In this document: positions 1,539-7,064 of the stretch, in pieces
Numbering within the stretch: position 1 is the first letter of the stretch
How the letters are laid out: every line of letters begins with the position of its first letter
Sequence record: ON528738
DNA length: 64,000 nt
Reading direction: 5' to 3' (one strand)
Source: Shigella phage ESh28
The notes under the pieces: generated by a model
Database searches by the model: none
The model's input: the letters and a program-made list of their open reading frames with translations, nothing else
What the model was told of the DNA's origin: nothing
Made by a program: the position numbers and the translations under genes

Positions 1539-2069
<531 letters not shown>

Positions 2070-2128
2070 AGTTGTTTACTTTCTCCTAGAATTGTGATAG
2101 TATATTCACAGTTACTTGGAGGGATAAA

Positions 2129-2545
2129 ATGACTCGTATTAATTTGACTTTAGTATCTGAACTTGCTGATCAACATTTAATCGCAGAATACCGTGAATTG
2201 CCGCGTGTTTTTGGTATAGTTCGTAAACATGTTGCAAATGGTAAGCGGGTTAAAGATTTTAAAATATCTTCCGAGTTTATTTTAGGTTCTGGTCATGTTA
2301 CTTTCTTTTACGATAAGTTAGAATTTTTGCGAAAGCGTCAATCAGACATTATAACGGAATGCTTAAAACGTGGGTTTAGTATAAAAGATACTGAAGTTCC
2401 TGACATCAGCGATATTCCAGTAGAATGGAAAAATGATTATAATCCATGCAAATCAGCTATTAAATTGAGTCAACAACGACTTGATGAAAAAATTTTAATG
2501 AAACCACATTGGTATAAGTATTACGGTAAAAATATTTACATTTAA
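2129..2545 (+). CDS. denV: endonuclease V, pyrimidine dimer DNA glycosylase
   Basis: 138 aa, N terminus [28 protein letters not shown] matches T4 endo V. Confidence 0.9.
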
Positions 2546-2554
2546 AGGAAACCC

Positions 2555-3028
2555 ATGAAAACATATCAAGAATTTATTACTGAAGCAGCTATTAATTCTC
2601 AAATTATTGCTGAATCTTTTACTGATCTTTTGAAATTTAAAAAAGGTCAAAAAATCACTGCTGTATTGGATGATGGTACAGAAGTTGAGATGGATGTACA
2701 GGGATATAATTATGCAGTAGATGGAAAACTGTATAATAAATCTCATGCTAAATTTGATTCATTTGACGATTTTGTTAATACAGTTGAAGATGAAAAAACT
2801 CGTAGATCCATTGCAACTGGCGACGCTAAGGTTCTTATGGCACACGGTCATGAACGTATCCGCGTCAAACAGAATAAAATGGGCGAAGATAATTTCGCAT
2901 TAGTTGGTTATCAATCTGGTAAACAAACTTATGGCTATCAACGTACTGCTACCATGTATAACAAAAATGGTAAAATTGCCTTTGTAAATAGTAAAGGTTC
3001 TATTCAGTACGTTAAATCGTTCAAATAA
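2555..3028 (+). CDS. internal-protein-like polypeptide with capsid targeting sequence
   Basis: N terminus MKTYQEFITEAA matches the T4 internal protein CTS (MKTYQEFIAE) with I-x-E prohead protease sites; size fits neither ipII nor ipIII. Confidence 0.6.
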   Translation: MKTYQEFITEAAINSQIIAESFTDLLKFKKGQKITAVLDDGTEVEMDVQGYNYAVDGKLYNKSHAKFDSFDDFVNTVEDEKTRRSIATGDAKVLMAHGHERIRVKQNKMGEDNFALVGYQSGKQTYGYQRTATMYNKNGKIAFVNSKGSIQYVKSFK

Positions 3029-3180
3029 GCAAATAAGAAATATGGGAACAAACTGGACCTCATGATTCTGTGAGGGATTCCCGCCAACCTGTAATAAGGT
3101 CGAGCCCAAGTGCGGTAATGGGTAAATACAGAAATGGACAATTCATGCGCCACGGAATGGCCCAAATTTAGAGAGAAGAA

Positions 3181-3720
3181 ATGAGAACATTTTTAACTGG
3201 TCCTTATCTATCCCTGATGAATGCTTTTACACACCATTCTGATGCTAGAGTAGAAGAAATTTGTAAAAACGATTATATCCCACCATTTGAAGACTTACTT
3301 AAGCAGTATTGCACACTTCGACTAGATGGTGGACGTCAATCCGGTAAATCAACTGCAGTAACTAATTTTGCCGCTAATTGGTTGTATGACGGTGGAACAG
3401 TTATTGTTCTTTCTAATACTTCAGCTTACGCTAAAATTTCCGCAGATAATATTAAAAAGGAATTTTCGCGTTATTCTAATGATGATATTCGATTCCGCTT
3501 ATTTACTGATTCTGTGCGCAGTTTTATTGGTAATAAAGGAAGCAAGTTCAGAGGTTTATCGCTTTCGCGAATTTTATATATAATTGATGAGCCTGTCAAA
3601 TCTCCTGATATGGATAAGATTTATAGTGTCCATATTGACACTGTACACTGCTGCTGTAATATTAAATGTTGCATTGGTGGTATTACTCGTCCACAGTTTT
3701 TCGTAATCGGAATGCAATGA
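3181..3720 (+). CDS. hypothetical protein with P-loop-like GGRQSGKST motif
   Basis: ORF with Walker A-like motif; weak SD; ATGA overlap with next ORF. Confidence 0.4.
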   Translation: MRTFLTGPYLSLMNAFTHHSDARVEEICKNDYIPPFEDLLKQYCTLRLDGGRQSGKSTAVTNFAANWLYDGGTVIVLSNTSAYAKISADNIKKEFSRYSNDDIRFRLFTDSVRSFIGNKGSKFRGLSLSRILYIIDEPVKSPDMDKIYSVHIDTVHCCCNIKCCIGGITRPQFFVIGMQ

Positions 3721-4046
3721 TGACAGACACTCAGCTTTTCGAATATCTTTATTTTTCGCCAAAAACTATTAAAAATAAATTGGTGAATCATTTTGAAATT
3801 TTGGCAAATAACAACGTCTTGAGCGAATTTTATCCTAAGCAATACAAATTACAAAAAGGCGTATTCAAAGGATGCAGAGTTTTGTGTACTGCTCCTAATG
3901 CACGGTTAATGAATAAAATTCCATATTTTACCATGGAATTTATTGATGGTCCTTTTAAAGGACTAATCACACAGAGTTTAATGGCATATGATTCTGAGCC
4001 ATTTTTAATTAAAGAACAATCTTGGATAAATTTATTTTCTAATTGA
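3717..4046 (+). CDS. hypothetical protein
   Basis: ATG (MMTDTQ...) overlapping stop of previous gene; start chosen inside tracked ORF 3666-4046. Confidence 0.4.
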
Positions 4047-4053
4047 GGTTTAT

Positions 4054-4416
4054 ATGAAAGCATATCAAATTCTTGAAGGCACACACAAAGGTACTATTTA
4101 TTTTGAAGATGGTATTCAAGCACGAATTATTGTCTCTAAAACCTTTAAAGAGGACTCTTTTGTAGACCCAGAAATTTTCTACGGTTTGCATTCCCGTGAA
4201 ATTGAAATTGAAACACAACCTACAGTTAAAATTGAAGGTGGTCAACACCTGAACGTTAACGTTCTGCGTCGTGAAACTCTGGAAGATGCAGTTAAGCATC
4301 CGGAAAAATATCCGCAGCTGACCATCCGTGTATCCGGTTATGCAGTTCGCTTTAACTCTCTGACTCCGGAACAGCAGCGCGACGTTATCGCTCGTACCTT
4401 CACCGAGAGCTTGTAA
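4054..4416 (+). CDS. autonomous glycyl radical cofactor, GrcA/YfiD-like (T4 Y06I-type)
   Basis: C-terminal half near-identical to the E. coli YfiD glycyl radical domain ([14 protein letters not shown]...[29 protein letters not shown]); host-like GC-rich codons. Confidence 0.85.
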
Positions 4417-4637
4417 TGGCAAAGATAATTATTGAAGGTTCTGAAGATGTGCTAAATGCTTTCGCCGAGTGGTTTAGTAATTCAGGCGAACAGCAATTTA
4501 ATGAAGCATGGAACATGGGTGATATTAATGGAATTTATCCTACGACAGAAATTTCTGTTCAGGGATATGGCATTCATGAACCTATTCGTTTAGTTGAATA
4601 TGATTTATGCACTGGTGAGGAAGTCAAATATGATTGA
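4416..4637 (+). CDS. hypothetical small protein
   Basis: ORF with ATGG overlap to GrcA-like stop. Confidence 0.45.
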   Translation: MAKIIIEGSEDVLNAFAEWFSNSGEQQFNEAWNMGDINGIYPTTEISVQGYGIHEPIRLVEYDLCTGEEVKYD

Positions 4638-4896
4638 AGATATTAAAGGTTATAAGCCACATACCGACGAAAAAATCGGTAAAGTAAATGCTATCAAAGA
4701 TGCTGAAGTTCGTTTAGGACTTATCTTTGATGCTTTATACGATGAATTTTGGGAAGCATTTGATAGCTGTGAAGATGATGAACTCGCGAAGAATTATGCT
4801 GAAAGCCTCGATCAGTTAACTATTGCTAAAACGAAACTCAAAGAAGCCAGTATGTGGGCTTGCCGTGCTGTGTTCCAACCAGAGGAAAAATACTAA
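4630..4896 (+). CDS. hypothetical small acidic protein (vs-region)
   Basis: ATG at Met 13 of tracked ORF preceded by GGTGAGGAAG; 88 aa. Confidence 0.45.
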
Positions 4897-5174
4897 TGGC
4901 TCAATTAAGTGCAGGGTTTGGTTATGAATATTATACTGCACCTCGTCGTGTATCTGCCGCTCCTAAGAAAATTCAAAGTCTTGATGACTTCCAAGAAGTA
5001 ATTCGTAATGCTTTCCAGGACTATGCGCGTTATCTTAAAGAAGATTCACAGGACTGCCTCGAAGAAGATGAAATTGCTTACTATGCGCAGCGTCTTGAAC
5101 AGCTCAAAAATCTACATGAGGTTCGTGCAGAAGTTTCAAAGTCTATGAATAAATTGATCAGATTTAAAGAATAA
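4896..5174 (+). CDS. hypothetical small protein (vs-region)
   Basis: ATG ([13 protein letters not shown]...) preceded by AGAGGA, overlaps upstream stop; 92 aa. Confidence 0.45.
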
Positions 5175-5176
5175 CT

Positions 5177-5206
5177 GTTTACTTTTCCTCTTGACTGTGG
5201 TATAAT
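5177..5206 (+). promoter_or_regulatory. T4-type early promoter
   Basis: GTTTAC, spacer, TGTGGTATAAT just upstream of regB. Confidence 0.6.
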
Positions 5207-5233
5207 TTTTCTATCAGTTAAGAGGAGAATAAC

Positions 5234-5695
5234 ATGACTATCAATACAGAAGTTTTTATCCGTCGAAATAAGCTCCGTCGTCACTTTGAGTCGGAGTTTC
5301 GTCAAATTAACAATGAGATTCGTGAGGCATCAAAAGCAGCAGGGGTCTCATCGTTTCATCTAAAATATTCTCAGCATCTTCTTGATCGTGCAATTCAACG
5401 GGAGATTGATGAGACATATGTTTTTGAATTATTCCATAAAATAAAAGACCATGTTTTAGAAGTTAATGAATTCCTGAGTATGCCTCCACGTCCTGACATT
5501 GACGAGGATTTTATTGATGGGGTTGAATATCGTCCTGGACGTTTAGAAATCACAGATGGAAATCTTTGGCTTGGATTTACAGTTTGTAAACCTAATGCGA
5601 AGTTCAAAGACCCGTCACTTCAGTGCAGGATGGCAATTATCAATAGTCGCCGTTTACCAGGAAAGGCTTCTAAAGCAGTAATTAAAACTCAATGA
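5234..5695 (+). CDS. regB: RegB site-specific endoribonuclease
   Basis: 153 aa, N terminus MTINTEVFIRRNKLRRHFESEFRQINNEIRE as in T4 RegB; strong SD. Confidence 0.85.
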   Translation: MTINTEVFIRRNKLRRHFESEFRQINNEIREASKAAGVSSFHLKYSQHLLDRAIQREIDETYVFELFHKIKDHVLEVNEFLSMPPRPDIDEDFIDGVEYRPGRLEITDGNLWLGFTVCKPNAKFKDPSLQCRMAIINSRRLPGKASKAVIKTQ

Positions 5696-5702
5696 GGTAA
5701 GC

Positions 5703-6248
5703 ATGAGAAAAGCACTACTCGCTGGTCTATTGGCCATTTCAATGATGGCACATAGCTCCGAGCATACTTTCAGTAATGTCCAACTCGATAACATGCGTTA
5801 CGCGTATCAATTCGGGGAACAATTTTCTAAGGATGGAAAATATAAAACACACAAAAATATCCACAAGAGCGGATTAGGTCATATAATGGCTGCTATTTTA
5901 TGGCAAGAAAGCTCTGGCGGAGTTAATTTAAAATCTAAACCAAAGCATCACGCCTACGGAATGTTCCAAAATTATTTGCCTACTATGCGAGCAAGAGTTA
6001 AGGAACTTGGTTATAATATGACCGATGCTGAAATAAAAAGAATGTTGAATAAACGATCCAATTCAGCTTCCTGGGCGTACATTGAACTTTCTTATTGGTT
6101 AAATATACATAAGGGCGATATAAGAAAAGCAATATCCTCTTATAATTCGGGATGGAATGTTAAAGCTGGTTCTAAATATGCTTCTGAAGTCCTAGAAAAG
6201 GCTAATTACCTTAAAAATAATAAACTTTTGGAAATAGTAAATGACTAA
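5703..6248 (+). CDS. secreted lytic transglycosylase-like protein
   Basis: Signal peptide; motifs E-S-S-G ... G-M-F-Q ... S-Y-N-S-G resemble family 1 lytic transglycosylase signatures. Confidence 0.55.
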   Translation: MRKALLAGLLAISMMAHSSEHTFSNVQLDNMRYAYQFGEQFSKDGKYKTHKNIHKSGLGHIMAAILWQESSGGVNLKSKPKHHAYGMFQNYLPTMRARVKELGYNMTDAEIKRMLNKRSNSASWAYIELSYWLNIHKGDIRKAISSYNSGWNVKAGSKYASEVLEKANYLKNNKLLEIVND

Positions 6249-6588
6249 AATTTTAGTTTTATGTATAGGATTAATTTCATTTTCTGCTTCTGCGTCAGCA
6301 GATACATCATATACTGAAATTAGAGAATATGTAAACCGCACTGCGGCAGATTATTGTGGGAAAAATAAAGCATGCCAAGCTGAATTTGCACAGAAATTAA
6401 TATATGCATATAAAGACGGAGAAAGAGATAAATCAAGCAGATACAAAAACGATACATTATTAAAACGATATGCTAAAAAGTGGAATACCTTAGAATGTTC
6501 AGTTGCGGAGGAGAAAGATAAAGCCGCTTGTCATTCAATGGTTGACCGTTTAGTAGATTCTTATAATCGAGGATTGAGTACTAGATGA
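6241..6588 (+). CDS. secreted cysteine-containing protein
   Basis: Signal peptide MTKILVLCIGLISFSASASA; 115 aa. Confidence 0.45.
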   Translation: MTKILVLCIGLISFSASASADTSYTEIREYVNRTAADYCGKNKACQAEFAQKLIYAYKDGERDKSSRYKNDTLLKRYAKKWNTLECSVAEEKDKAACHSMVDRLVDSYNRGLSTR

Positions 6589-7064
6589 TTGTAAAATATA
6601 TCAAGGGCGATATTGTCGCCCTATTTCTTCAAGGTAATATTATTGCGCACGGGTGCAATTGCTTCCACACAATGGGCTCTGGCGTAGCGGGTCAATTAGC
6701 AAGAGCCTATCCCAAAATTTTAGAAATAGATAAAACCACTACCGAGTACGGTTCTCGTGATAAATTAGGCGATATGTCTATTGTTTTTAAACATAGTCCT
6801 ACGGGATTTGGTATATGCTATAACCTGTATACACAATACGAACCGGGTCCTAATCTTGATTATGGTGCTTTAGTAAACTGCATGATAGAATTAAATCTAC
6901 AGGCAGAAACCCTTTTGTTTAAACCAGTAATTTACATTCCACGCATAGGTTGTGGTATTGCTGGCGGTGATTGGGATAAGGTTTCTAAATTAATCGACAT
7001 GTTTACTCCTGATATTGATTTGATAGTGGTGGATTATGAAAGTACATTACCCGCATCCGTTTGA
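6585..7064 (+). CDS. macro domain protein (ADP-ribose binding or hydrolysing)
   Basis: KGDIV...NIIAHGCN...GSGVAGQLA and IPRIGCGIAGGDW match macro-domain nucleotide-binding motifs. Confidence 0.6.
   Translation: MIVKYIKGDIVALFLQGNIIAHGCNCFHTMGSGVAGQLARAYPKILEIDKTTTEYGSRDKLGDMSIVFKHSPTGFGICYNLYTQYEPGPNLDYGALVNCMIELNLQAETLLFKPVIYIPRIGCGIAGGDWDKVSKLIDMFTPDIDLIVVDYESTLPASV

Follow-up and report, generated by a model that had tools for sequence, protein, structure and literature searches.

The window analysed here, a stretch of 64,000 nucleotides from Shigella phage ESh28 (sequence record ON528738), carries two short open reading frames immediately upstream of regB. ORF1 occupies positions 4630 to 4896 on the plus strand (ATG at 4630, TAA at 4894-4896) and encodes 88 amino acids, and ORF2 occupies positions 4896 to 5174 on the same strand (ATG at 4896, TAA at 5172-5174) and encodes 92; these are exactly the coordinates at which the original prediction had placed two genes for proteins of about 90 residues. 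The stop codon of ORF1 and the start codon of ORF2 share one nucleotide in a TAATG overlap (4894-4898). Each frame is preceded on the plus strand by a Shine-Dalgarno-like GAGGA motif recognised from the sequence, at 4617-4621 for ORF1, 8 nt before its ATG, and at 4882-4886 for ORF2, 9 nt before its ATG and within the 3' end of ORF1. Upstream, the 3' end of vs.5 (4416-4637) overlaps the start of ORF1 by 8 nt; downstream of ORF2 lies regB (5234-5695, plus strand), whose product matches the Pfam family REGB_T4 with 230 bits. Comparison of the whole window places the source phage among the Tequatroviruses, with about 98% identity to ESh24 and RB3, and at the nucleotide level the segment from 4000 to 5800 shares 97.6-98.6% identity with many Tequatroviruses, these two phages among them. 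In the annotation of T4 the order is regB, vs.3 (279 nt), vs.4 (267 nt), vs.5, vs.6, vs.7, vs.8 and denV, and both the gene order and the sizes match those of regB, vs.3 and vs.4 in ESh28; the original prediction, too, had placed the two frames where T4 has vs.3 and vs.4. ORF1 thus falls in the slot of T4 vs.4, between vs.5 and vs.3, and ORF2 in that of vs.3, directly upstream of regB in both phages.

The differences from T4 are mostly silent, with 13 synonymous and 5 non-synonymous codon changes in vs.4 and 10 synonymous and 3 non-synonymous changes in vs.3. Because the two frames are syntenic with T4, have changed mainly at synonymous positions and have homologues in many phage records, ORF1 and ORF2 are, on this comparative evidence, real, conserved and selected genes rather than chance open reading frames. 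A terminator scan found no terminator-like site on the plus strand from 1966 to 5174, as would fit polycistronic transcription without proving it. Promoter-like sites occurred at chance level (23 found, 26 expected), and the sole site of the scan worth noting is that of regB at 5178-5206, in which TTTACT and TG-TATAAT are separated by 17 nt. The early genes vs.4 and vs.3 are probably co-transcribed and translationally coupled. The ribosome-binding site of regB, GAGGAG (within 5178-5233), includes GGAG, the cleavage motif of RegB, and the GAGGA sites of vs.4 and vs.3 do not contain it.

ORF1 matches the Pfam family Acb2_Tad1_hairpin (PF24729) with 71 bits, the gathering cut-off being 27 (E 9e-20), in a match that spans all 58 positions of the profile; it also matches PHROG 717 with 112 bits, the latter being the family by which Jenson et al. 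collected Vs.4 homologues (PMC10097602). Among solved structures its sequence matches PDB entry 7UQ2, 'Vs.4', over its full length (residues 1-88, E 4e-53) and the Acb2 protein of phage PaMx33 (p26; 8IXZ and 8H2J) weakly. Alignment with T4 Vs.4, which had been proposed as the way to examine the relationship, gave 82 identical residues of 87 (94%). The five substitutions are E13D, L44F, N46S, C50D and F52L, and all but the first lie at the hairpin tip. The residues that form the cGAMP pocket, Y8, H11, K23, S74, R79 and F82, are all kept, as are T12 and L60 and, in a check of residues rather than of assembly, the hexamer-interface positions L29, F33, A66, A73 and A77. Across an alignment of 32 Vs.4 family members from T4-like phages, the six pocket residues, and with them the pocket-forming termini, are invariant, and the hairpin tip, approximately residues 37 to 65, is hypervariable and contains insertions and deletions. 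An AlphaFold2 (AF2) model of ORF1 (pLDDT 87.5) is a long two-helix hairpin with helices at 13-45 and 50-81, and a Foldseek search with this model returned 7UQ2 first (E 8e-11, TM 0.77), followed by the PaMx33 Acb2 structures 8H2J and 8H2X (TM 0.73).

The T4 protein to which ORF1 corresponds has been characterised in depth. T4 Vs.4 is a hexamer that takes up three molecules of 3'3'-cGAMP (Kd about 30 nM), with Y8 and F82 stacked against the bases, polar contacts from H11, K23 and R79, and S74 at the ligand contact; the oligomer interfaces are made by L29, F33, A66, A73 and A77 (Jenson et al. 2023, PMC10097602). Y8A and F82A, as well as mutants of L29, A66, A73 and A77, lose function (PMC10097602). 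The original prediction took T4 Vs.4 to be the anti-CBASS protein Acb2, and the literature bears this out: acb2 and vs.4 are one gene (PMC12657218, PMC10097602), for which Y8A and F82C phenotypes have been reported (PMC12657218). T4 Vs.4/Acb2 (7UQ2; Jenson et al. 2023 Nature; Huiting et al. 2023 Cell) and ORF1 have the same length of 88 residues and identical cGAMP-contact and hexamer-interface residues, and the predicted fold of ORF1 superposes on 7UQ2. The founding member of the family, PaMx33 Acb2, has cyclic trinucleotides among its ligands as well and shares only about 24% identity with ORF1. Judged from sequence, ORF1 is orthologous to T4 Vs.4, the Acb2 protein. The original prediction had left open which of the two frames, if either, held this ortholog, and it is the one farther from regB. 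With 94% identity to T4 Vs.4, we infer that ORF1 would form a hexamer, bind 3'3'-cGAMP with nanomolar affinity and inhibit CBASS in vivo. T4-Acb2 binds cyclic dinucleotides and not the trinucleotides cA3 or cAAG, and D61R does not rescue trinucleotide binding (PMC10312549). Because D61 and T68 of T4-Acb2 are both present in ORF1 and T4-Acb2 binds neither cA3 nor cAAG, the ligand range of ORF1 is expected to be restricted to dinucleotides.

ORF2 belongs to a different family. It is identical to T4 Vs.3 at 88 of 91 positions (97%), matches PHROG 2037 with 137 bits, and in a sequence search of the PDB matches 9WIW, the apo form of TadIV-1 from phage UPEC07, over residues 1-92 (E 1e-37); a Pfam search of ORF2 gave no significant match, and no Acb2_Tad1_hairpin match up to an E value of 1. 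T4 Vs.3 was named TadIV-1 by Chen et al. (2026 Nat Commun, PMC13243611), who found T4 vs.3 to be necessary and sufficient against type IV Thoeris, a TIR-Caspase system, to which T4 Δvs.3 is sensitive. In purified form TadIV-1 has a KD of about 216 nM for N7-cADPR, which it releases intact, and two of its two-helix protomers make up a homodimer whose pocket derives from a flexible N-terminal loop (PMC13243611). Mutational analysis shows that R17, R18 and K24 of T4 TadIV-1 are important for N7-cADPR binding; the binding mode itself comes from Boltz-2 models and mutagenesis, the pocket never having been seen experimentally (PMC13243611). Only 'long' homologues, of more than 80 residues, are active, as were all long ones tested, and short homologues of about 70 residues are inactive (PMC13243611).

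The residues to which these activities have been traced are retained in ORF2. It keeps R17, R18, K24 and K25, as well as K48, E49 and H74, the counterparts of K57, E58 and H83 in the UPEC07 protein, and in an alignment of 22 Vs.3 family members R18 is invariant and K24 nearly so. The three substitutions relative to T4 Vs.3 are V21A, V36I and T64A, the first of which sits in the N-terminal loop, a part linked to ligand binding, and is not among the residues that have been mutated. With 92 residues ORF2 is of the long form, its N-terminus aligning with those of T4 and other long homologues, and it equals T4 Vs.3, a member of the active long group, in length. The crystallised TadIV-1 of UPEC07 (101 residues), which is active and belongs to the homologues that are about 70% identical, has nine N-terminal-loop residues that are absent from both ORF2 and T4 Vs.3. 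The AF2 model of ORF2 is of moderate overall confidence (pLDDT 64, and below 50 for residues 1-18) and shows a disordered stretch at 1-28 followed by antiparallel helices at 29-51 and 57-91, in agreement with published TadIV-1. A Foldseek search of the PDB with this low-information hairpin gave no significant match in a library that ends on 2026-04-08 and probably does not contain 9WIW. These comparisons identify ORF2, at the level of sequence, as the ortholog of T4 Vs.3/TadIV-1 and not as an Acb2-like protein. Given 97% identity to T4 Vs.3, it would be expected to form a homodimer, bind N7-cADPR and inhibit type IV Thoeris.

The suggestion that both frames are candidates for an Acb2-like sponge consequently holds for ORF1, the Acb2 ortholog, and fails for ORF2. 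A rival reading would make both proteins cyclic-dinucleotide sponges and tandem-duplicate paralogues of a single helical-hairpin gene. The genes are adjacent and of nearly equal size (88 and 92 codons), both products are two-helix hairpins, and BLASTP aligns the two weakly over a short stretch at the hairpin turn, 10 of 19 residues being identical (E 0.006, as a single comparison). This match falls, however, within the tip, the part of Vs.4 proteins that is hypervariable, and its local score of 42 was reached by 22 of 2000 shuffled sequences; when the profiles of the 22 Vs.3 and 32 Vs.4 sequences were compared with hhalign, the probability was 1.3%, so that no homology between the two families is detectable. 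ORF2 moreover lacks the hairpin-domain match of ORF1, T4 Vs.3 does not suppress the CBASS system of E. albertii, its binding of the Yersinia CBASS signal was not detected in vitro, and the published structure comparison calls TadIV-1 distinct from Acb2 (PMC13243611). Paralogy of Vs.3 and Vs.4 was rejected as unsupported on the hhalign, shuffle and tip-location results, and we regard the duplicate-gene account as very improbable. The adjacency of the genes and the same weak local match also underlie a broader idea, in which the tightly packed block vs.5-vs.4-vs.3 is a dedicated anti-signalling cassette with the variant Vs.5 as a further counter-defence factor, or in which Vs.4 and Vs.3 descend from an ancestor so ancient that sequence no longer reveals it; this is a long shot, if a somewhat better one than the other alternatives weighed here. 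In a 57-residue protein predicted from an ENA metagenome contig of 642 nt (P0043), the N-terminal 30 residues of Vs.3 are fused to the C-terminal 27 of Vs.4 through an 'SLD' tripeptide common to both, with the parts in the reverse of their genomic order; this protein probably reflects either a chimeric assembly or a deletion variant that arose by recombination.

Two further readings concern function rather than descent. ORF2 might be an RNase or an accessory factor of RegB: its gene lies directly upstream of regB, the molecule in 9WIW is named 'Endoribonuclease', and the labels 'endoribonuclease' and 'RegB-like RNA endonuclease' appear on homologues in Yersinia phage vB_YenM_P8. The paper from which 9WIW derives, however, describes the entry as apo TadIV-1, a sponge for N7-cADPR (PMC13243611), ORF2 has no match to REGB_T4, the family to which the neighbouring true RegB is assigned with its high score, and a two-helix hairpin of 92 residues offers no recognisable nuclease site. 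The label of 9WIW was rejected as a naming artefact on the authority of that paper (PMC13243611), and an RNase function is the least credible of the alternatives. Homologues of both Vs.3 and Vs.4 are mislabelled as endoribonuclease in some records, for example GenBank PP693301.1 (vB_YenM_P8), the label apparently having been carried over from the neighbouring regB. It is also conceivable that the two genes are orthologs whose ESh28 alleles have been inactivated or altered in specificity by their substitutions, as the clustering of four of the five ORF1 changes at the hairpin tip and the location of V21A in the ligand-binding loop of ORF2 might suggest. Every residue for which there is mutational evidence is nevertheless unchanged, and across the 32 members of the Vs.4 family the tip varies freely around an invariant pocket. 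Proteins 100% identical to those of ESh28 are encoded by deposited phages (that of ORF1, for example, by Shigella phage JK38 and that of ORF2 by vB_Eco_T-01), and all tested long TadIV-1 homologues are active, including that of UPEC07 at about 70% identity (PMC13243611). Altered alleles are thus unlikely, though less so than either a shared origin as Acb2 duplicates or an RNase.

The reading that we favour, with a probability of about 0.92, is that two adjacent T4-like early genes encode small helical-hairpin sponges directed against host nucleotide second messengers. In ESh28 it is grounded in the presence of the two genes, their orthology and synteny, the functional residues retained and the predicted folds; oligomeric state, affinity and ligand binding, and the anti-defence phenotype are carried over from published experiments with T4. 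By orthology, both frames are immune-signal sponges, and just ORF1 is a cyclic-dinucleotide sponge. Both proteins would disarm abortive infection by the host through sequestering a messenger without degrading it. The putative ORF1 hexamer would contain three pockets, each between two protomers, in which Y8 and F82 would make stacking contacts with the bases of 3'3'-cGAMP or another cyclic dinucleotide, H11, K23 and R79 would provide hydrogen bonds and salt bridges to the ligand, and S74 would lie at the contact; a signal held in this way would be kept from CBASS effectors such as CapV. In the predicted ORF2 homodimer, the N-terminal loop (R17, R18 and K24) of one protomer and helix 1 of the other would jointly bind N7-cADPR, and with the signal captured type IV Thoeris would fail to activate its caspase-like effector.

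Sequestration of an intact nucleotide immune signal by a small homo-oligomer is a strategy common to these proteins and to Tad1, Tad2, Acb4, sequestin and lockin. The latter have other folds, oligomeric states and ligands than ORF1 and ORF2, and no sequence relationship to them was detected; Tad1 and ORF1 have the Acb2/Tad1 hairpin domain family alone in common. Both proteins and their functions are already known, and no new mechanism is involved. In a tblastn search of 50,697 phage records, Vs.4-like genes were found in 1,231 records from phages of Escherichia, Klebsiella, Shigella, Enterobacter and other hosts, 59 of them at least 99% identical to ORF1, and Vs.3-like genes were found in 651 records, whose hosts are less varied than those for Vs.4, 9 of them at least 99% identical to ORF2. 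Identical proteins are almost always annotated as 'hypothetical protein', including those of the nearest relative, ESh24, and genes so labelled in hundreds of Tequatrovirus records could be named acb2 (vs.4) and tadIV-1 (vs.3).

For the prediction of host range, in phage biology as in therapy, a phage with both genes should evade CBASS systems that signal through cyclic dinucleotides as well as type IV Thoeris. The presence of a gene does not guarantee an anti-defence phenotype, because phage T2 is sensitive to type IV Thoeris despite a functional TadIV-1 (PMC13243611). The phage may, in addition, be vulnerable to guard systems that employ decoy nucleotides, such as Panoptes, which fires when Acb2 depletes the signal, so that Acb2 can be a liability on hosts that carry Panoptes (PMC12657218).

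Several neighbouring genes depart from T4 or carry recognisable domains. Vs.5 of ESh28 (4416-4637, plus strand; 73 residues) matches PHROG 1986, a family of unknown function, and resembles the 58-residue T4 Vs.5 over its first 17 residues alone, 16 of which are identical; the remainder is unrelated, so the C-terminus has been frameshifted or replaced in one lineage. A 157-codon frame at 2555-3028 (plus strand), between denV (2129-2545) and the vs.8-like gene, matches Pfam DUF7412 with 317 bits, and its product is annotated in phage AR1 as 'Ip4 internal virion protein'. T4 has no counterpart of this frame, denV abutting vs.8 there, and it looks like a variable internal-protein cassette. Searches of solved structures with Vs.5, Vs.7, Vs.8 and Ip4 gave no significant match. 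Two genes upstream of acb2, the vs.6 ortholog (4054-4416, plus strand) contains a Gly_radical domain (67 bits), by which it is classed as an autonomous glycyl-radical cofactor of the GrcA type. A Tk.4-like protein encoded at 6585-7064 (plus strand) has a Macro domain (Pfam, 32 bits), a kind of domain that acts on ADP-ribose derivatives by binding or hydrolysis and is of note so near the gene for the predicted sponge of a cADPR isomer.
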